Source of the DNA: Shigella phage Henu10
Sequence record: OQ791282
DNA: 47,865 bases
Reading direction: 5' to 3' (one strand)
Shown here: in pieces, positions 8,735 to 46,100 of the stretch
How positions within the stretch are numbered: the first letter of the stretch is position 1
Layout of the letters: the number at the start of each line of letters is the position of its first letter
Translations under genes and position numbers: made by a program
Notes under the pieces: model-generated
Told to the model about the DNA's origin: nothing
Databases searched by the model: none
The model's input: the letters and a program-made list of their open reading frames with translations, nothing else

Positions 8735-9454
8735 ATGAAAGCGTTAATCAAAATTACAGAACAAAACGGAAAACAAGCCGTGTCAGCTAGAGAGTTACAC
8801 TCTTTTTTAGAGATAAAAGATAAATTCACAGATTGGATAAAGCGAATGTTTGAGTATGGATTTATTGAAAACATTGATTATCAGATTTTATCGGATTTTT
8901 CCGAAAAAATAGGCAGAGGTCGTCCATCGGTTGATTACGCCCTTACACTAGATTGTGCAAAAGAGATTTCAATGTTACAGAGAAGCGAAAAAGGCAAACA
9001 AGCGAGGCGTTACTTCATAGAGTGCGAAAAGAAACTCCGCACAGGGGCTTACGCTTTACCACAGACCTTTGCAGAAGCATTGAAATTAGCCGCCCAACAA
9101 GCAGAGCGTATAGAATTGCAACAGGCAGAACTCAAAAAACAAGCCCCGAAAGTGGCTTATTATGAAGAAGTATTGCAAAGCGAAAGCACTTATAATACCA
9201 ATCAAATAGCAAAAGAGTTAGGTATGAGTGCCATTACGCTTAACAAAAAGTTACAAGATTTAAAAGTTCAGTATCGGCAAGGTGGCACTTGGCTACTCTA
9301 CCACAAATATCAAAATAAAGGCTATACGAAAACTAAAACGCATACCTATACCGATACTAAAGGGGCAACCCAAACCAGTATGCAGACGGTATGGACTGAA
9401 AAAGGGCGTTTATTTATACACGAGGCTTTATCTAAACGCTTACAAAGTGCCTGA
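8735..9454 (+). CDS. AntA/AntB-family phage antirepressor
   Basis: N-terminus MKALIKITEQNGKQAVSARELHSFLEIKDKFTDWIKRMFEYGFIENIDYQ matches the AntA N-terminal domain; paralogue at 22775..23524. Confidence 0.65.
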   Translation: MKALIKITEQNGKQAVSARELHSFLEIKDKFTDWIKRMFEYGFIENIDYQILSDFSEKIGRGRPSVDYALTLDCAKEISMLQRSEKGKQARRYFIECEKKLRTGAYALPQTFAEALKLAAQQAERIELQQAELKKQAPKVAYYEEVLQSESTYNTNQIAKELGMSAITLNKKLQDLKVQYRQGGTWLLYHKYQNKGYTKTKTHTYTDTKGATQTSMQTVWTEKGRLFIHEALSKRLQSA

Positions 9455-25183: not shown

Positions 25184-25513
25184 TTATTTCACATGAGAAG
25201 AGTTAAACCATAAACTCTTCTCTTGATATTGTGCCTTTATTCTCCCTATTTTTATTTCTTCCACATTTAAAGTTGAATTTTTTGGGACGATAAACATTTT
25301 CCCATCCATTATCATTTGACCGAACGCGTTACCATCTTTAGCATTTGAAATCCTTAACATTTCATCAAAATCAGACTCGGTAATCGTTCCCACTGTTTCT
25401 TGTGTAGTATGAACATCATCTCCCACCTTGAAAAATTCTGATTTTTTACCACAAGATATAAAAGCTCCCAATATTAACAAAGACAAGGCAAAAAACAATA
25501 ACGCTTTTTTCAT
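25184..25513 (-). CDS. Lipoprotein
   Basis: MKKALLFFALSLLILGAFISC signal/lipobox; promoter and 5'UTR identical to that of 6335..7027. Confidence 0.55.
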   Translation of the reverse strand: MKKALLFFALSLLILGAFISCGKKSEFFKVGDDVHTTQETVGTITESDFDEMLRISNAKDGNAFGQMIMDGKMFIVPKNSTLNVEEIKIGRIKAQYQEKSLWFNSSHVK

Positions 25514-25602
25514 AGTTTTAAATTTTAAATTAGTTATGTCGCAAAGATATAAAAAGTTATCAAGAAAAAGAGAGGCGGTAGCCCCTCTGTAATGCTTAGT
25601 GG

Positions 25603-25875
25603 TTACTCTCTTGAATAAACCATACCCTTTCTAAGCCCTGATGTTATTCTCCTGTACTTAAATGTATGTCCAACATCATACTGAGCATATGCTAAAGTGG
25701 GTACTTCCATAATGGAGTCTTTAGATTTGAAAAAGTAATCATAACCGCCTTTATTGTTTTTTAGGCTTATTTTTTCAGTAATTGTAAAGTCAAAATCTTG
25801 ATATGTGTCTTCCTTGTGTTCGCCACAAGAGAGTAAGGTAAATAAAAATAGTCCTGTTAATATTATTTTGTTCAT
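25603..25875 (-). CDS. Lipoprotein
   Basis: MNKIILTGLFLFTLLSCGEHK signal/lipobox. Confidence 0.5.
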   Translation of the reverse strand: MNKIILTGLFLFTLLSCGEHKEDTYQDFDFTITEKISLKNNKGGYDYFFKSKDSIMEVPTLAYAQYDVGHTFKYRRITSGLRKGMVYSRE

Positions 25876-26123
25876 CTCAATTTTATTACTAATTTTTCCG
25901 ATATGTATGTTTTTCCTTTTTTTAGAGTAGCGTAGTCTTCTACATCTACCTGCTTTTCATCTATTTCCCCTGTTATCTCATCTTTTATGATAATGTAATA
26001 CGCGGGGGTGTATCTTGTACCTACAATTTTATCAACCACGGTGTATTTGTACGGCTGTTGTTCTATCTTAAAAAAGAATAGAAATGCTCCTACTAGGAGT
26101 AGGGCGGTTATTGTTACTTTCAT
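25872..26123 (-). CDS. Secreted/membrane small protein
   Basis: N-terminal hydrophobic signal-like segment. Confidence 0.4.
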   Translation of the reverse strand: MKVTITALLLVGAFLFFFKIEQQPYKYTVVDKIVGTRYTPAYYIIIKDEITGEIDEKQVDVEDYATLKKGKTYISEKLVIKLR

Positions 26124-38228: not shown

Positions 38229-39545
38229 ATGGCAAAAAATGGTCAAAAAGTTTCCCTCTCTCTCCGCAAAAAGGAGTTAAGCCGTTGTAAATCAACGGTT
38301 TTGCTTTATAAAACAGGTCTTAAAGCACAAAAGTGCACAAATTCCATTTCCGCTACCCCTAATGTCCAACACTTTAATTTGGACGAAATGGAAAATTATT
38401 GGACTAATCCCAAAGTGAAACATTACCCCTTAGAAACAGGTAAGGATTGGTATGTTTGGTTTCGATTTAACGGAGGTAATCCCATTAGAGTAAAGCAAGG
38501 GCTTAATCAGATTCCAGAATTTGAGGAAAGGCTGCAAGAGGCTTATGCAATGGCAGATGTCATAAGAGAAAGGCTAGAGAGTGGTTGGGTTCCTCAAAGT
38601 GCTAAAGTGAGGGTAAAAAGGATAAATCTTATAGATGCCGTTATATTTGGCTTTGAGGAAAAAAAGAAAACTCTTTCAAAAAACAGCATCGATAATTTTA
38701 GAAGCTCTGTCAATTTCTTTATTGAAGCGGTCAAGGAGTTGCAATATCACAGAATGCAGGTGTCTAGTTTTGAAAGGATACAAGCTAAAGAGGTTCTGGA
38801 ACATCTAAAAAATGAGAAAGGCTGGTCTAACAAGACTTATAATAAACATCTTGGTTTTTTAAGGTCTGTTTTTCACGAAATACTTGACGCTGACTACATA
38901 AAAAGTAATCCATTTAGAGACATTAGAAATCTAAAGGTTCTAAAAAAAGAAGCAAATGTACCTCCAACAAATGAGGAGATGAAAGCTATATCTAACGCTT
39001 TGCAGGATTACTGTTTTGGGTTCTATGTCTTTTGTTCCACTATCTATTATTGCGGTATCCGTCCTGCGGAGTTGGTGCAAATGAAAGTATCAATGCTAGA
39101 TTTGGATAACGAGCTAATCAATTTACCTGCTGAAATAACAAAAACAGATGCTGATAGGGTAGTACCCATAAGCGAAAACTTGAAAAGTCTATTTTCAAAA
39201 TTTAACCTTTCTAATCCTCATAATTATTTGTTTGGTACTTGCGTGCCGAATGGAGGAAGGCACGGTATTAAAAATAGATATTTTGAGCCTAATGAGTTCA
39301 AAGTAAAGGAAGACACAGCTAATAAGCTATGGCGTAGGCTGATAAAAGACGGCTTAGGCATTGACAAAAATATGTACTCCTTGAAGCACAAAGGAGCAGA
39401 CGATAAAATATTAGCAGGAATGCCTATTGAAACCATACAGGCTATATTTGGACACTCTACTCAAAAAATGACCGAGCGATATGCTAGGATAATGAAATTG
39501 CAAAGATTTGAAGAGGCTAAAAAAATAAAGTTGCCTTCTTTTTAG
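38229..39545 (+). CDS. int: Tyrosine integrase (true start may be ATG 38388)
   Basis: C-terminal catalytic region ...GHSTQKMTERYARI (H-x-x-x-T-x-x-Y); a terminator-like hairpin and a 16-bp direct repeat lie within the first 160 nt of the track ORF. Confidence 0.8.
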   Translation: MAKNGQKVSLSLRKKELSRCKSTVLLYKTGLKAQKCTNSISATPNVQHFNLDEMENYWTNPKVKHYPLETGKDWYVWFRFNGGNPIRVKQGLNQIPEFEERLQEAYAMADVIRERLESGWVPQSAKVRVKRINLIDAVIFGFEEKKKTLSKNSIDNFRSSVNFFIEAVKELQYHRMQVSSFERIQAKEVLEHLKNEKGWSNKTYNKHLGFLRSVFHEILDADYIKSNPFRDIRNLKVLKKEANVPPTNEEMKAISNALQDYCFGFYVFCSTIYYCGIRPAELVQMKVSMLDLDNELINLPAEITKTDADRVVPISENLKSLFSKFNLSNPHNYLFGTCVPNGGRHGIKNRYFEPNEFKVKEDTANKLWRRLIKDGLGIDKNMYSLKHKGADDKILAGMPIETIQAIFGHSTQKMTERYARIMKLQRFEEAKKIKLPSF

Positions 39546-39586: not shown

Positions 39587-40189
39587 TTATAATTTTTGTG
39601 AATCTTGTTTAGAGTATAACTCTTTTATCTCTTCTGTAACGATAGGTTCATAAAATTTTATAAAATCATCTATAACACTTTCGTCACATGAATTTTTATT
39701 ATAACCTACATAAATATTGTCTCTGATATTTCCTTTTTGTTTCATATCATATTCTTTTTTTATACAATTTCTTTTCAAAAAAGTATAAAAAACGCTCATT
39801 CTTCTGTTTAAATCCTCTTTTTGAGAGTGTTTGACATAGTTGTCATCTAATGCATAAAAACAAAAAGAATAACCCTTATGTTCTTCTATGCAAAGGTTAA
39901 AACATTCTCTGAATAGTCGTAAAGTTACCATAGGATTTATACAATCCCTACCTTTATTTCTTTTAAATTTTTTTATCCCTTTAGATTTGGAAAATTTAGT
40001 AAAATAAAAAGACAAAACAATTATTTTGTATTTTTCAAAACGCTCTAAAAGAATTATCCATCTATGCTTTTTGTCTTCATCACAAATAATGAGGCTATAT
40101 TCCTCTTCAACATAAAATACTCCGTGCTTGTCTTTATTGGAACTTTTAATCCTTTTTTTAGAAACTTTAAAATAACTCTTCCCCAACAT
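39587..40189 (-). CDS. Hypothetical protein, putative toxin partner of the Panacea-domain protein
   Basis: 200 aa, Cys- and Lys-rich; overlaps the upstream gene by 23 nt; no recognisable domain. Confidence 0.35.
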   Translation of the reverse strand: MLGKSYFKVSKKRIKSSNKDKHGVFYVEEEYSLIICDEDKKHRWIILLERFEKYKIIVLSFYFTKFSKSKGIKKFKRNKGRDCINPMVTLRLFRECFNLCIEEHKGYSFCFYALDDNYVKHSQKEDLNRRMSVFYTFLKRNCIKKEYDMKQKGNIRDNIYVGYNKNSCDESVIDDFIKFYEPIVTEEIKELYSKQDSQKL

Positions 40190-40679
40190 TACTGTTAAAA
40201 GTTGCTATCCCACATACATTGTGATTGACAACAGGTATCCTTCCGTTACCGTCCAATGAAAAATCAGAAATACTTTGTCCATCTATTTTTATTGTATTGG
40301 TAGATATTTGCTCAGGAGAAATTTCTCCTCTAGCATTTCTCCAAAGAGATTCACTATGAGTCAAATCTACTAACTCTAATCCTGTATATCCTCCATAAAT
40401 CTTCCAAATTTCATTCAGATGAGAAACGATTTCTTTATCACATATATCTTTTTCAATATATCTCTCATTTATTAAATCCCCTCTTCTTATAAACCTATAT
40501 TTATCCCAAACATTGCGAACAACAGGACCTAATACCCAAGCCTGTATTTCGTCTTTAAATAGCAAATTTCTATACTTAACAAAATACCAAACTTGAGAGT
40601 AAAATAGAAGTTTCTGTAACTTCAGTGGTGTTACTCCTTTTCTAATAAAGAAAAACGATATATCTACTGCGGAATACAC
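40167..40679 (-). CDS. Panacea-domain (DUF4065 / GepA-like) protein, PanA-like antitoxin candidate
   Basis: N-terminus MYSAVDISFFFIRKGVTPLKLQKLLFYSQVWYF...AWVLGPVVRNVWDKY matches the Panacea hallmark (T.LKLQKLLYYAQ ... AW..GPV); own TATATTTG promoter at 40720..40713. Confidence 0.55.
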   Translation of the reverse strand: MYSAVDISFFFIRKGVTPLKLQKLLFYSQVWYFVKYRNLLFKDEIQAWVLGPVVRNVWDKYRFIRRGDLINERYIEKDICDKEIVSHLNEIWKIYGGYTGLELVDLTHSESLWRNARGEISPEQISTNTIKIDGQSISDFSLDGNGRIPVVNHNVCGIATFNSNVGEELF

Positions 40680-40854
40680 GATACAATATTTTATATATTA
40701 AATTTGATAGTGCAAATATAATATTTTAAAATTATTTTTATTTTTCTATTATTAAATTATGTAGTCAAATGTGCAAAAGCAGTTTAAATCTAAATGTCTA
40801 AATGATAAAAACCACCGTGAGGGTGGTTTTTGTTTTTACTTGCATTTGACGATA

Positions 40855-41349
40855 TTAGAAACTTACATATTCTGTCTTTTGCCTATTATACAACCCTTGC
40901 AAATCTGCAATAGACTTACCAAAGGTTTTTTGAAAATGTGGAGGGTCAGTAAATCTCCAATCGCCGCCCCAAGTCCAACCATAGCGTTTAAATATAGCTA
41001 CAATTTCTTGCCAATCTGCTATTTTATCATTGTCAAAATCTGCTTTTGTGTCCCACACGGCTGTTTGGTAAGTTCCGTTATTGTCTTTATCCACTAATAA
41101 GCAAATATCAATAGCCAATCCATAATTATGGTAAGACTGTCCACCTCTTGCATTAGTTACTCGTTTTCCTTTTTTTGTTCGACCTATTGCGTACAAGTCG
41201 TTTTGCTCCTTAAAAGTTCGGAGCGTATGAGTAAATCTACAAATAGCATTCCCTGTAAGAGCCTTGCAAATTTCCTTATAAATAGCTTTAGCTTCTTCCC
41301 TTAATTTCGGGTGCAAAAGTTCAATTCTTTGCAGTGTGATTTTATCCAT
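40855..41349 (-). CDS. Endolysin, peptidase M15 (L-alanyl-D-glutamate peptidase-like)
   Basis: Motifs RTFKEQNDLY, SYHNYGLAID and DWRFTDPPHF match M15/VanY zinc-ligand architecture. Confidence 0.75.
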   Translation of the reverse strand: MDKITLQRIELLHPKLREEAKAIYKEICKALTGNAICRFTHTLRTFKEQNDLYAIGRTKKGKRVTNARGGQSYHNYGLAIDICLLVDKDNNGTYQTAVWDTKADFDNDKIADWQEIVAIFKRYGWTWGGDWRFTDPPHFQKTFGKSIADLQGLYNRQKTEYVSF

Positions 41350-41361
41350 AGTCTTGTTTTA

Positions 41362-41940
41362 TTAAAATAGTTTTATTCTTTTCAGATAAAAGTAAAGTAC
41401 AGCCCCTGCGATAATTAGGATACTACCTATAATTATCCACACCCAAGTACCGAATGTAAATCCAGATGATTTCACTTCGTTAGATACCGCCCTTATTTCA
41501 TTAGCTACCTCATTTATTGTTCTTTGGGACACGGTGTTTCTTGCCAATTCCTGCACTTCATTAAGATATTCCTTTACTTCTTTTTTCTCCGTTGTATGTT
41601 GATTGCTATTCTTGAAAGATTTAACCGAGAATTGAGCATTCCCCTTTATGATGATGCTTTGTAAAGTATCCTTACCCTCTACTTCGTGAAAGACAAAGGG
41701 CTTATCGGTTTCTGTTTTTCCGAAAATTTCGATTTTCTTTTCTTGATGTTTAGAATGTTTATCAATCTGAAGTTTATCCTGTACTTTAGTCGTTTGTTCC
41801 CGCTTGATTTCTTTTGCAGAAATGCTGTCTTTTAGCTTTACTTCCACAGTTTTACTTTGGATATGAGTGTCCGTCTTCTTCCTCGTCCGACAAGAAAACA
41901 AAAGAAGTACAGCGATTATCAATAAAAATTTACTCTTCAT
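41362..41940 (-). CDS. Unimolecular spanin-like lipoprotein, putative
   Basis: N-terminal lipoprotein signal (LLLFSC) and C-terminal transmembrane helix in one 192-aa protein, between holin and endolysin. Confidence 0.4.
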   Translation of the reverse strand: MKSKFLLIIAVLLLFSCRTRKKTDTHIQSKTVEVKLKDSISAKEIKREQTTKVQDKLQIDKHSKHQEKKIEIFGKTETDKPFVFHEVEGKDTLQSIIIKGNAQFSVKSFKNSNQHTTEKKEVKEYLNEVQELARNTVSQRTINEVANEIRAVSNEVKSSGFTFGTWVWIIIGSILIIAGAVLYFYLKRIKLF

Positions 41941-42451
41941 ATTTTTTAGTTTTAAAAGTTTCTAAATCTGCATTTTCATTAAACTTGCGTAATTTTTTCA
42001 TCCACCCGACTGGTGGAAACTTTCCATTGGTTAGAATTGATAAATTCCCCATTGCACTTCCCGCAGGATAGAGTAAAACCATTAGTTGGAGCAATACTTT
42101 GAAATAGATGGCTATAAAATCAACATCTTTGACAATTTGATGCACCATTTCAAACAGAACATAGCCCACAATTACGCTTGTGGTTTTCCCAAATAACCCA
42201 TAGACATTTTCTTTAAATGAAAAATCCCTTTTCCTCCAATGCACCCAACTACCTAAAATATGGTCTAAAAACAACGCCACAAAAACAAAGGTCATAAAGA
42301 TTTGGTTTTCTATGTACCAACCGATAAACCGCTCCGTAAGAGATATTCCTATGGCTGGTGCGGCAGCTAATTTTATCGTTCCTAGTATTTTTTGGCTTGC
42401 AGTTCCTGTATGTATATTCATCAGATTAGTGATGATAAACTCTTTAATCAT
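41930..42451 (-). CDS. Holin-like membrane protein
   Basis: 173 aa with several predicted transmembrane helices; lysis cassette position. Confidence 0.45.
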   Translation of the reverse strand: MIKEFIITNLMNIHTGTASQKILGTIKLAAAPAIGISLTERFIGWYIENQIFMTFVFVALFLDHILGSWVHWRKRDFSFKENVYGLFGKTTSVIVGYVLFEMVHQIVKDVDFIAIYFKVLLQLMVLLYPAGSAMGNLSILTNGKFPPVGWMKKLRKFNENADLETFKTKKYEE

Positions 42452-42807
42452 AATGTGCGTCTTTTATTAAAAATTTGCCAAAGTTTTCGGTTTTTCAAAT
42501 ACTCTAAATCGTTTTGATTCTCATAAGCCTCTCGTTCAAATATGATGTTCCGATAGGCTTCTCTATGGTTCTTGTACCTAAACAAGTTCCATAGGTAGTT
42601 TAGTCCATACCAAACGAAAAAAGGCAAAATCAGTAATTCTAATTGCTGTCTTAGATGTATTTTCTCGTGGTTCAACAAGTACCTATTACTTTGATACTTT
42701 TTATTCTTTAGAAAGATGAAAGGAAACACCGCCATTGCGGTGTACCCTCTCGGTACTAAATACTTACTTATTATTACCATCTTCTGCCTCTTTTTTTTCA
42801 ACTTCAA
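42448..42807 (-). CDS. Small membrane-associated protein with HExxH motif
   Basis: NHEKIH motif, basic N-terminus, hydrophobic segment. Confidence 0.3.
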   Translation of the reverse strand: MKLKKKRQKMVIISKYLVPRGYTAMAVFPFIFLKNKKYQSNRYLLNHEKIHLRQQLELLILPFFVWYGLNYLWNLFRYKNHREAYRNIIFEREAYENQNDLEYLKNRKLWQIFNKRRTL

Positions 42808-43087
42808 AGCCGTTTATTATTTCTAAGATTGTATCTAAGGCACTATTGACCACCTGTAAATCTTCCACACTATTTACGCCTGTTCCATTTAATGATAGCC
42901 CTCCACCTTTAGAGTAAGAACCTGATAAGGTATTCCCGTCTTGTAATTGAGTGCTGAAATTGACCATTTGGGGAGTTTTATTATTGTAATCAGTTTCGTA
43001 CTGATAATAAATTTGTTTTTCCCCAATGTTTTCCATTAGCGTTGTTGCTACTCTCTCGTTTACTTTTTGTAAGTTTTTTGTTTTCAT
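42764..43087 (-). CDS. Hypothetical protein
   Basis: 107-aa ORF downstream of the fibre gene. Confidence 0.3.
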   Translation of the reverse strand: MKTKNLQKVNERVATTLMENIGEKQIYYQYETDYNNKTPQMVNFSTQLQDGNTLSGSYSKGGGLSLNGTGVNSVEDLQVVNSALDTILEIINGFEVEKKEAEDGNNK

Positions 43088-43113: not shown

Positions 43114-46100
43114 TTATGAATAATTTGTTATTATACCTTTTCTAATGGTAAGCCATACTCCCCCCAAAAATAATTCTCCTGTATATCCTACCTCTCCACC
43201 CACACGAATATCTCCCGATTCTATATTTAAGGCAGTAGCATACTGTCCGTCAGCCCTTATAGATAGGGCGTTGTAGGGCGTATAATTGTTCACATCACGC
43301 CCCCAGAGCCGAAGTATATTGTTTTTATTTCCGTTTAAAATACTATCATCATTATTGATGAGAGCATAGCTTTCTCTCCCAGATGAAAGACTTTTTTTAT
43401 ATGAAAGTATGCTTCCAGATGACTTTATTTCTAAATAGTCGTTTGGGTCTGCTATTCCTTGCCCCGAAAGTGTATTTCCGCTAATATTGAACCTTGCTAT
43501 TTTACCACCTGTAATTTCCATATCAGAGCCATAAACTTTCCCATTATCCAGCACCCTAAATGGTGCATTATGTTTATTGGCGTAGTTCGCTCCTGCTCCA
43601 AATCTCACGCTCATTGCTCCCTCGTCGGTAATACCACTAATAAAAGCGTTTTGATTAGCTTGGTTGCTTCCGACTGACATCAAGTTAGCCATCATCAACC
43701 CGCCTTGAATAGAAGTGAAGTTGTCGGTCTTGGTCTTCACATCAGCCAAAGAGGTTTGCATATTAGCTATTCCTTGTTGAAGGTTGGCAAATAGTGCGTC
43801 CAAGTCTTCGGGGGCGGGTGTCCAATCGGTTGCTTTATTGCCTTTTTCAAGTTTTACATCTTTAAACCAAACTGTATTGTTGCTAAACGCTCTGAGTATA
43901 AAGATGAAATAGGCTGTGTCAGGCTGTGTCCTTATTGTGAAGTTCACATATTTATATTCTGAATTAACAGGGAACTCCCTGTAATTATCAGAATAAACAG
44001 TCGTATGAGTGCCGTTCTCTTTCATTTCTAATGCGTAGAAAAAAGCTGAACCTATCCCCTTAACAAAGGCTGATATTGTATATTCTGTGTTTTTCTCACA
44101 TTTTATATTTTGGTCTATTTGATTGTAAACTTGTCCATCTATCGAGGTTATTTTAACGCTCCTTTCATTAGGTAGAAACTCTGCTTGTGGATACCCTTTG
44201 CTCCAATGCTCTCCACCGTTTTTAAATTCAGTATTGCGAGCTAGGTTTCGACCACCAACAATTACTCCATTGATAGCATTATTAAGTTGAGATGTTGTTG
44301 CACCTCCACCATTACTCACTATTGCCGAAGCGTTTAGTAACTCTGTTTTGATATAGCCTCCCTGCACAATTGTGTTGCCGAGCATTGCTCTTTCTACGGA
44401 GTTCTGCCACGCCATTGTGCCGAGATTATTAAATTTGCTAGTAACCTCGTTTCTATGAGTATTTACCAACGCTTGAGCGTGTGCCTTAGCTTCTTCTAAC
44501 TTCGCCTTAGCTTCATTTATTCTCGCTTGTTCTTCGGCGGTCACTATACTATCTGCGTGAGCCTCTGCTTGCAACCTCGCCAAATTAGCTTTAGCTTCCG
44601 CCACAGCAATAGCTGATTGTTCAGCCTTATCAGCTTTTCCATCTGCGTAGGCTTTTATTAGCGTTTCCTTTAAGTTATCTTGTGCCTGTGCATACTCTTT
44701 AGCTAATTGCAGTTTCTGCTGGGCATCTGCAATCGCTCGTTGTTCTTCTTTGCTAACCTTTCCGTCAGCGTACGCTTCCGCCTGCGTCTTGGCTAAATTA
44801 GCCTGTGCCTGTGCGTAAGCATTAGAGGCTTGTGTTGCCTGTTGCTCGGCTCTTGTAATATCTGATTGTATATCTTCAGGAGCAGGTGTCCAATCAGTAG
44901 CTTTATTTCCTTTTTCTAACTTCCAATTTCTGTGGTAAATTTTTGCAGTTGCAGGAACACTTCCGTCATTATTCCATATCGCATATATGCCCATAAAACG
45001 AGTGTTGTTATATGGAGAATTTTCTATCTTCGTCCAAACATTCGCAGGACAAAATTTTCTATTATTCTCCCCAAAACCTATATACATATCGTGAGTGGGC
45101 TTTACTTCCATTGATTGGATAGTTTCCTGCCCTGTGAGGTCTTCCGTGAAAACACTTATATTATTGAGTAAATGAAAATAGGTAGAAATATAAAAATTAC
45201 CATTATTCACACTTGTTCCAGAAATCCATTTCACTCCATTTTCCTCTCCCTGTGTTAAGTCCCATGTTCTTCCGTTGTTGTTGAACATTCCGTATCCTTT
45301 TTGAGAACCCCTAAGGTAATTTCTACCTCCTACACTTACCGCATCCACCGCTTGTTGTATAGCACTCCCAACTTCCGCATAACCATTACCGCTTTTGAAC
45401 TTAATCGTTCCTGCTATTTCCCCACTATCCAAATCAAAATAGGTTTGTCCGTTGAGCGATTTAATTCTCCCTGCTGTTATTTGCCCTCCGTGCATAAATA
45501 CATTACCGTACATTGCTTCTGCTTCTCGTTTACTGTCTTTTGGTGTGTAGAGTAAGTAACACAAGAAGTAATAATAATCTGACCGACTATCAAACCTTAT
45601 CTGCTCGGTGGTGATATACCACATCGCATTACTACTTCCTCTTGAACATTTCGCATAAACGTAATAAACCTGATTCAATAAATCATTACGGCTGTATGGT
45701 AGTAAATTCCACTCTCTAATATCGTCTTCTAAAGAAAAATGAACCAACTTCCCACCACTAATAAATGTTCTTGCAGGATTACCCTCTATATTAGGATTCA
45801 GACTTATATTTTCTAATGCAAATTGTTGGCTCTTTGCTCCAACCGAAAGCATATTGGCTTCTATACTCTCTGGCTTGATATGTGTAGAGTCAAAGTAACC
45901 CTCTACATCAAAGACACTTTCTCGAAGCTCTTGCAGGTTACGATAACCGTTCAAGTAATTTCGTCGGTTAATTTGTTCCTGCGTTTTTATAACCGTTTTA
46001 GTATCTTTAATATCGGTAAGCAGACTTGCTACAAAGCTGATTTCGTAAGTGTCCGCAATGCCTATTTTGTAATTATATTCATCTAATAAGTCCCTCGTAA

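Follow-up and report, generated by a model that had tools for sequence, protein, structure and literature searches.

A late lysis operon with a candidate unimolecular spanin and a small HExxH protein in a temperate Riemerella anatipestifer siphophage

INTRODUCTION

The lysis region of sequence record OQ791282, deposited as Shigella phage Henu10, raises the questions of whether a lipoprotein encoded between the holin and the endolysin is a unimolecular spanin (u-spanin), and of what part, if any, is played in lysis by a small HExxH protein encoded directly upstream of the holin. An initial annotation of positions 40855-42807 had read the former as u-spanin-like and had regarded the latter as unusual for a lysis cassette, possibly a regulator or an immunity-type metallopeptidase. 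Here we follow up these proposals in the whole 47,865-nucleotide record, which we refer to as the window. The best explanation of the locus as a whole, to which we give a probability of roughly 0.75, is a canonical three-step late lysis operon that carries the HExxH protein (also called the zincin below) as a passenger.

RESULTS

Identity of the phage and layout of the lysis operon

At the nucleotide level, region 40855-43087 is 100% identical to three siphophages of Riemerella anatipestifer (vB_RanS_PT03, PT15, and PT33). Identity is 96 to 99% to GRAP2, PJA1, and PJO17 and, over the genes in common, also to RAP44 (96%); the coordinates of the cassette in PT15 are equal to those in the window. 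The R. anatipestifer chromosome CP011859 contains a prophage with the same gene block and an integrase nearby. Because of this identity to phages and a prophage, together with an integrase in the window itself (38229-39545), we assign the element to the temperate R. anatipestifer siphophages of the RAP44/PT15 group.

The four open reading frames (ORFs) that the initial annotation had assigned to the cassette were all recovered on the minus strand at the positions it gave. They belong to a minus-strand late operon whose features are as follows, in the 5' to 3' direction (lengths in amino acids [aa]; TMD, transmembrane domain):

43114-47472, minus strand: tail (fibre) protein, 1452 aa, with Prophage_tail and CBM domains
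42764-43087, minus strand: acidic 107-aa ORF, flanked by the tail-fibre and zincin genes (ORF call)
42448-42780, minus strand: HExxH protein, 110 aa, mini gluzincin-like, PHROG 15610 (ATG start from homologues and GenBank)
41930-42451, minus strand: holin, 173 aa, four hydrophobic segments (PHROG 14914)
41362-41940, minus strand: unimolecular spanin candidate, 192 aa (lipobox plus C-terminal TMD)
40855-41349, minus strand: M15 peptidoglycan peptidase/endolysin, 164 aa, soluble (PF13539)
40804-40834, no strand: terminator-like hairpin, G+C-rich, between A and T runs (13-pair stem, T tail)

The genes are tightly packed. The end of the 107-aa ORF overlaps the start of the HExxH gene by 17 nt, the HExxH stop and the holin start share the sequence ATGA (a 4-nt overlap), and the holin end overlaps the start of the 192-aa gene by 11 nt, while a gap of 12 nt separates the latter from the M15 endolysin. 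The hairpin lies 20 nt past the endolysin stop and has the appearance of a bidirectional terminator-like site closing the operon.

A candidate u-spanin between holin and endolysin

The 192-aa protein carries a predicted membrane anchor at each end, as the initial annotation had proposed. Its N-terminus, MKSKFLLIIAVLLLFS-C17, fits a PROSITE-type lipobox pattern (lipobox LLFS-C17), and its C-terminus consists of a hydrophobic stretch at ~158-189 (Kyte-Doolittle hydropathy [KD] 2.35-2.54) and a basic tail, KRIKLF. The intervening periplasmic domain of ~147 residues is K/E/T-rich and cysteine-free, Cys17 being the sole cysteine of the protein. When all six frames of the window were scanned for lipoboxes, we recovered four ORFs of at least 90 aa, and only the 192-aa protein had a C-terminal anchor. 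PADLOC gave no match to this protein. It thus combines a lipobox, a C-terminal TMD, a position in a lysis cassette, and the absence of periplasmic cysteines, and the reading of this protein as a u-spanin candidate appears well supported. We infer its lipoylation, topology, localization, and membrane disruption from the sequence. The +2 residue of the lipoprotein is arginine (R18) rather than aspartate, and residues +2 to +6, RTRKK, are strongly basic. Surface-export signals of Bacteroidota have been described as acidic; the basic stretch is unlike these and therefore fits a periplasm-facing lipoprotein. A sub-threshold match of the C-terminus to the NCBIfam "LPxTATN/LAXTG sorting signal" was rejected, as it reflects only the transmembrane (TM) helix and basic tail, with no LPxTG-like motif before the helix.

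The u-spanin reading agrees with an existing catalogue entry. Kongari et al. (2018, BMC Bioinformatics 19:326) listed phage RAP44 as a singleton u-spanin family in their Table 5, and their supplementary tables describe the RAP44 "USP" as a 192-aa protein whose periplasmic domain is 149 aa long, at 39% helix and 19% strand, with a single coiled coil at 113-148; all 58 of the u-spanins that they catalogued lack periplasmic cysteine (PMC6139136). The window protein is 98% identical to RAP44 gp03 (YP_007003601) over all 192 residues, with four substitutions, and the two share the lipobox, the TMD, the cysteine-free periplasmic domain, and the location between holin and endolysin, differing in the adjoining endolysin, which is an Amidase_3 in RAP44 and an M15 peptidase here. 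This half of the finding is therefore a rediscovery of a published bioinformatic call on a 98%-identical protein. The gene is nonetheless annotated as a "hypothetical protein" in all GenBank records that we examined, and a 2026 paper on phage GDF21 describes its lysis system as holin ORF63 plus endolysin ORF65, passing over ORF64 (PMC12845321).

T1 gp11, the prototype u-spanin, likewise has an outer-membrane lipoprotein signal, a C-terminal TMD, no periplasmic cysteine, and a gene in the lysis cassette (PMC6139136), but the two proteins have no detectable sequence similarity (our homologue search returned Riemerella-type or metagenomic matches only), and the 192-aa protein falls outside the T1 gp11 family as delimited by ≥40% identity over ≥40% of the periplasmic domain. 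It is also longer (192 aa versus 133 aa), and ~39% of its periplasmic domain is helix, including a predicted coiled coil, whereas that of T1 gp11 is mostly beta. The gene is placed between those for holin and endolysin, not at the end of the cassette; the partners of the protein are a canonical holin and a soluble endolysin, in contrast to the pinholin and signal-anchor-release (SAR) endolysin of most of the T1 family. With lambda Rz/Rz1 it would share the job of linking the inner and outer membranes and disrupting the outer membrane after murein degradation, and its membrane-proximal helical or coiled-coil segment beside the TMD resembles that of the inner-membrane spanin (i-spanin) of such pairs. 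Unlike Rz/Rz1, it is a single polypeptide with a C-terminal rather than N-terminal TMD, it has no cysteines for intermolecular disulfides, and the window has no embedded or overlapping gene for an outer-membrane spanin (o-spanin) here.

Holin and endolysin

The endolysin matches PF13539 (Peptidase_M15_4) at 68.4 bits (E = 8.2e-19; cutoff, 25) and VanY at 2.3e-7, and it also matches PHROG 2649 (endolysin; 6e-31) among several endolysin PHROGs; the GenBank product name of the PT15 gene agrees with this assignment. It is an enzyme of the L-alanoyl-D-glutamate peptidase type. We found no hydrophobic N-terminus, signal, or SAR segment in it (maximum KD, 0.65), and therefore a canonical holin would be needed for it to reach the wall.

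The upstream 173-aa protein matches PHROG 14914, "holin," at 5.4e-83 and has hydrophobic segments at 22-38, 51-67, 91-107, and 112-128, while its matches to Pfam Phage_holin_4_1 (17.5 bits, under the 22.2 cutoff) and NCBIfam holin_1 are sub-threshold. Its label as a holin comes from annotation, and as a small protein with multiple TM segments in a lysis cassette it has the properties expected of a putative holin. Homologues with 42 to 45% identity lead the same cassette elsewhere. The holin start contains both Met1 and Met11 (MIKEFIITNLM...), so that a dual-start holin/antiholin arrangement is conceivable.

Conservation of the cassette with a swappable endolysin

Relatives of the 192-aa protein are few; a search of 5.8 billion proteins returned only 5 clusters, all Riemerella-type or metagenomic. 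Two distant relatives with 34 to 40% identity retain the lipobox, the single cysteine, the central motif DTLQSIxIKGNA, and the C-terminal helix, and both are encoded between a holin homologue (42 to 44% identity) and either a PF11860 muramidase or a PF00959 lysozyme. To survey the cassette more widely we examined 50 loci, made up of 48 IMG/VR loci with holin homologues and the two loci of the distant relatives. Wherever a holin ORF and a readable downstream ORF were present (46 loci), an overlapping lipobox gene directly follows the holin in every case, encoding proteins of 134 to 197 aa (one of 134 aa, the rest of 173 to 197 aa). Of these proteins, 13 have a C-terminal anchor at the set TM threshold and 11 are recognized by a hidden Markov model (HMM) of the Riemerella protein.

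The gene that comes next is of at least five endolysin kinds across the surveyed cassettes: Amidase_3, M15, Phage_lysozyme, and PF11860 muramidase by Pfam, and a GH108-like kind by eye. The same exchange is seen among the Riemerella phages, where PT03, PT15, PT33, GRAP2, PJA1, and PJO17 encode an M15 enzyme and RAP44 (4749-5303 of the RAP44 locus), the CRP phages, and PJN03 an Amidase_3, and the homology break between the two falls directly after the u-spanin stop codon. That the lipoprotein-anchor gene stays fixed while the endolysin is swapped is expected of a lysis component and not of a moron. A module of holin, overlapping lipoprotein-anchor gene, and swappable endolysin is kept even where the spanin sequence has diverged beyond detection, and the evidence for a spanin consists of its architecture, its conservation down to 34 to 40% identity and past detectable similarity, and the invariant gene order.

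In ~25 of the IMG/VR loci, in which the holin is 40 to 45% identical (e.g., L098, 3633-3992), a 119-aa protein is encoded directly upstream of the holin, in the slot occupied by the zincin in Riemerella phages. Its N-terminal region is hydrophobic (MKEIVNFLVGLVLFLLAWALFLPISFLNFFIVGL...), and it may serve as a second holin or as an antiholin.

In the mechanism that we propose, the 173-aa holin would accumulate in the inner membrane and form holes at a set time, and the soluble M15 peptidase, which is without an export signal, would cross these holes and cut the peptide stems of the peptidoglycan. The 192-aa u-spanin would have its lipid anchor in the outer membrane and its C-terminal helix in the inner membrane, the basic tail being cytoplasmic, and its periplasmic domain, which would comprise a charged N-terminal stretch, the central beta-rich DTLQSIxIKGNA motif, and a membrane-proximal helix, would thread the murein mesh. 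Once the murein was gone, the u-spanin would collapse and fuse or disrupt the two membranes, membrane fusion being the action proposed for spanins (PMC6139136). The HExxH protein would be a passenger that is transcribed with the lysis genes but not required for lysis, its translation probably being coupled to that of the holin. Late in infection it most likely cleaves some protein of host or phage origin, either in the cytoplasm or on the surface of the inner membrane.

A probable minimal gluzincin-like domain in the HExxH protein

The HExxH motif reported by the initial annotation is real (H38-E39-K-I-H42), whereas the length of 119 aa that it gave has to be revised to 110 aa: the TTG start at 42807 adds nine unsupported residues, and the homologues and GenBank begin at the ATG at 42780 (MVIISKYLVP...), homologue starts all following the pattern M-(I/V/L)-I-x-S-K-Y-L-V-P. 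Among 116 diverse homologues from phages and chromosomes, E39, H42, Y58, Y76, E82, and E84 are invariant and H38 is near-invariant (≥90%). The hydrophobic segment that had also been noted is likewise present (residues 47-69) and conserved in the family, yet it is borderline as a TM helix, with a KD19 of 1.45 here. Values of TM grade (≥1.6) are reached by 60% of the family, and the stretch 49-60 is hydrophobic on every face throughout the family.

The protein matches PHROG 15610 ("protease") at 1e-44, with residues 10-115 of the 119-aa version aligned to positions 2-104 of the 105 in the profile. No Pfam, NCBIfam, or PADLOC model scored above threshold, the PF13699 DUF4157/eCIS_core model reaching 12.2 bits (E = 0.21; cutoff, 22 bits), and a Pfam scan of 48 diverse relatives recovered no family, with DUF4157 at best at E = 0.086 in 1 of the 48. 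An SBF match among the relatives was set aside as a single case, due to a transporter at the N-terminus of one protein that is fused or mis-called. The family is large: clustering at 90% identity gives more than 4,300 clusters and clustering at 50% gives 3,108, and nearly all of its members are stand-alone proteins of 105 to 115 aa.

A confident AlphaFold (AF2) model built from a diverse alignment has a predicted local distance difference test (pLDDT) score of 93.4 and consists of a three-strand sheet followed by helices, with the HExxH motif on helix 33-49, a long hydrophobic helix at 51-69, and the sequence FEREAY on helix 80-88. E82 and E84 in this ExxA-like sequence (E82-x-x-A85) are candidates for the third metal ligand. 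Searches of the PDB with two zincin profiles gave spurious KCNE1 matches or none, and a Foldseek search of the PDB with the model gave no significant hit, the top one being the BlaR1 protease domain (E = 2.9). Taken together, the protein would be a minimal gluzincin-like domain and a member of PHROG 15610 that is not demonstrably in any curated peptidase family.

Two described proteins offer points of comparison. The C-terminal domain of VgrG2b (PDB 6H56), which its authors describe as a thermolysin-like gluzincin of the DUF4157 type whose Glu ligand comes from a later helix (PMC6899460), has only 12% identity to the HExxH protein; it is ~180 aa, delivered by a type VI secretion system (T6SS), and paired with an immunity protein, whereas the phage protein is a stand-alone protein of 110 aa with no secretion signal. 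The crAssphage (Carjivirus communis) protein gp56, a "putative zincin superfamily protease," belongs to the same family, with 37 to 42% identity depending on the alignment, an equal length of ~110 aa, and all motif residues kept, but is encoded among tail genes rather than before a holin. Our literature search on the crAssphage zincin yielded nothing on this family; the one protease that it brought up, a large virion domain of phi14:2 gp65, is unrelated.

Distribution and origin of the HExxH gene

The zincin gene is kept in every Riemerella phage and prophage that we examined. Outside this group it is missing from cassettes with the same holin: none of the 44 non-Riemerella loci with a holin ORF encodes a zincin in the 4 kb flanking the holin on each side, or in the shorter flank where a contig ends sooner, and among the loci with a homologous holin it occurs only in the two Riemerella-type loci. 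This pattern points to a gene that was inserted in one lineage, between tail module and lysis cassette, rather than a conserved lysis gene, and it agrees with the earlier remark that an HExxH gene is unusual in a lysis cassette.

The gene is also chromosomal. At 75 loci from different species of Flavobacteriaceae, the zincin is divergent from hutU (urocanase) and a DUF4136 lipoprotein gene, and 3' of it lie a PALP-family enzyme, a glucosaminidase-LysM protein, and hemL. The Riemerella phage zincin is 60 to 65% identical to the chromosomal copies and 30 to 44% identical to those of other phage groups, and this higher identity makes capture from a flavobacterial chromosome the most likely origin of the phage gene. 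In Polaribacter porphyrae, a VanY (M15) gene overlaps the 3' end of the chromosomal zincin; nearby peptidoglycan hydrolases are the only functional hint for the chromosomal protein.

Elsewhere in phages, the zincin follows the portal gene in other crAss-like genera and the terminase gene in siphophages of Bacteroides, Phocaeicola, and Parabacteroides, and it is found in Maribacter phages as well. Its presence in several unrelated Bacteroidota phage groups would be explained most simply by repeated capture. It adjoins a holin or a holin-like multi-TM protein in at least two phage lineages. In Carjivirus (p-crAssphage gp57), Delmidovirus, and Diorhovirus (Crudevirinae), a conserved 104- to 109-aa protein with 2 to 3 TM segments is encoded directly before the zincin, and cr110_1 has an additional 80-aa multi-TM protein. 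The pre-zincin multi-TM genes of the crAss-like Crudevirinae are as follows:

L007, 3457-3786: pre-zincin multi-TM gene
L092, 2091-2417: pre-zincin multi-TM gene
L094, 2184-2498: pre-zincin multi-TM gene

We considered these proteins as homologues of the Riemerella holin and found no homology; they are unannotated and could be holin candidates for crAss-like phages. It would be a doubtful step, and one that we think quite unlikely to be right, to generalize from these neighborhoods that the ~110-aa HExxH/ExEA proteins are minimal, possibly membrane-associated gluzincins that act as a Bacteroidota-specific envelope-processing or lysis-timing protease, for example by cutting an outer-membrane/peptidoglycan tether or a holin inhibitor.

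DISCUSSION

Weighing the alternatives

The u-spanin reading has to be set against the possibility that the 192-aa lipoprotein merely has its gene in the cassette and is a Cor/Llp-like envelope protein, serving superinfection exclusion or lysogenic conversion, or else regulates the holin. The phage is temperate and encodes other small lipoproteins, and the PHROG matches of the protein to Rz-like spanins are insignificant (E ~0.02), with an equally weak match to Cor. Such a role would leave unexplained why the protein combines a lipobox, a C-terminal TMD, and a cysteine-free periplasmic domain, which is the definition of a u-spanin (PMC6139136), and why its gene overlaps the holin and precedes the endolysin in 46 of 46 loci while the endolysin type varies. 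No other spanin candidate lies in or beside the cassette, the other lipobox ORFs being at ~6.3 kb and ~25 kb. One pair at ~25 kb, made up of an 83-aa protein that has its TM helix at the N-terminus and the 90-aa lipoprotein encoded after it, was considered as a two-component spanin and not favored, as neither protein has coiled-coil or Pro/Cys-rich spanin features and both are far from the lysis genes. We therefore hold a non-spanin role to be very unlikely. Several observations do weigh against the u-spanin reading. Lipoprotein sorting in Bacteroidota differs from that in Escherichia coli, and because the rules differ the outer-membrane localization of the 192-aa protein is an assumption. The published u-spanin call for RAP44 is itself bioinformatic. 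Lastly, in a group of 33 surveyed loci with an MVSC lipobox (173 aa; one of 134 aa), whose sequences are beyond the reach of the Riemerella-protein HMM, the C-terminal anchor is below KD 1.6; the sole representative read, L098, has the MVSC lipobox, a charged K/E/T-rich middle, and a C-terminal WWVYFVIFAAGGLCW with sub-threshold KD.

For the HExxH protein, the reading as a passenger competes with a role as a lysis component or regulator, namely a metallopeptidase whose substrate would be the holin, an antiholin, the spanin, or a tether between outer membrane and peptidoglycan and which would be released or activated at holin triggering. The passenger reading sits less easily with the ATGA shared by the HExxH stop and the holin start within one late operon, the presence of the gene in all Riemerella phages and prophages examined, the family-conserved and uniformly hydrophobic helix 49-60 that suggests membrane proximity, and the 104- to 109-aa multi-TM protein directly before the zincin in three crAss-like genera. 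A lysis role would also be in keeping with the VgrG2b C-terminal domain, the best structural match to the HExxH protein (12% identity), which is a toxin acting on the cell envelope from the periplasm (PMC6899460), and with the flavobacterial chromosomes, where a glucosaminidase-LysM gene lies two genes downstream of the zincin and VanY overlaps it in Polaribacter. What decides against it for us is that the zincin is missing from all 44 non-Riemerella cassettes that have a homologous holin and lipoprotein-anchor gene, which speaks against the lysis regulator proposed by the initial annotation, and that in other phage groups it follows the portal or terminase or lies among tail genes without a membrane-protein neighbor. 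A syntenic chromosomal zincin in Flavobacteriaceae is hard to square with a dedicated lytic job, the HExxH protein is without a signal peptide, and the crAss multi-TM neighbor is unrelated to the Riemerella holin and itself uncharacterized. A lysis role is thus unlikely in our view, and we regard the gene as probably accessory and not as a regulator of lysis. The immunity-type function that had been suggested, in the form of an ImmA/IrrE-type (M78) protease cleaving the phage repressor, or else an anti-defense protease, is less probable still and can be regarded as an outside chance: Peptidase_M78 (PF06114) is not matched at E ≤ 1, no other Pfam family is matched above threshold, and PADLOC gave no match; the gene lies in the late operon between tail fibre and holin, far from the helix-turn-helix (HTH) regulator and the integrase and not beside the repressor; and its closest relatives are chromosomal genes of Flavobacteriaceae in a metabolic or housekeeping neighborhood.

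Other loci in the window

The 107-aa ORF between the tail-fibre and zincin genes has no match in Pfam, PHROG, NCBIfam, or PADLOC; it is a hypothetical protein in PT15 and RAP44, and its position is kept in the R. anatipestifer prophage. Just past the lysis-operon terminator and beside the integrase, two overlapping genes lie on the minus strand:

40167-40679, minus strand: SocA/Panacea-domain protein (PF13274, 3e-17)
39587-40189, minus strand: 200-aa protein, with a 23-nt overlap with the Panacea gene

The 200-aa protein has no match in Pfam, PHROGs, NCBIfam, or PADLOC, and the pair as such has no PADLOC match; the two genes have the look of a Panacea antitoxin and its toxin partner, the latter possibly novel.

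Two further regions encode envelope-directed or regulatory proteins:

6335-9454, plus strand (opposite the structural genes): low-GC island (0.29-0.33) with inverted GC skew, after the tape-measure gene
25184-26123, minus strand, early region: three consecutive small ORFs, for an 83-aa protein (TM helix at the N-terminus) and lipoproteins of 90 and 109 aa, in that order

The island encodes a Big_2 lipoprotein, a DUF3800 protein, and an AntA/KilAC antirepressor, and it is probably a moron or regulatory insertion; the mature N-terminus of the Big_2 lipoprotein, C-SRDDD, resembles a Bacteroidota surface-export signal. The three ORFs of 25184-26123 matched no family, and as envelope-targeted proteins they are possible superinfection-exclusion proteins.

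Significance

As a cassette, the locus is ordinary and largely already known, and what interest remains is in the mini-zincins, a family that is unexplored. The practical value of the spanin assignment is mainly one of annotation, as the gene is unlabeled in GenBank for some twenty Riemerella phages despite the 2018 RAP44 entry, and the 2026 paper on "two-component holin plus endolysin" lysis also leaves it unlabeled (PMC12845321). Our survey adds that the module is common to a wider set of uncultivated phages and that u-spanins with helical membrane-proximal segments look typical of this lineage. The small zincins form a large, conserved, and unstudied family, and a role for them in the envelope or in lysis of Bacteroidota and their phages, including crAssphage, would be of moderate interest, if true.

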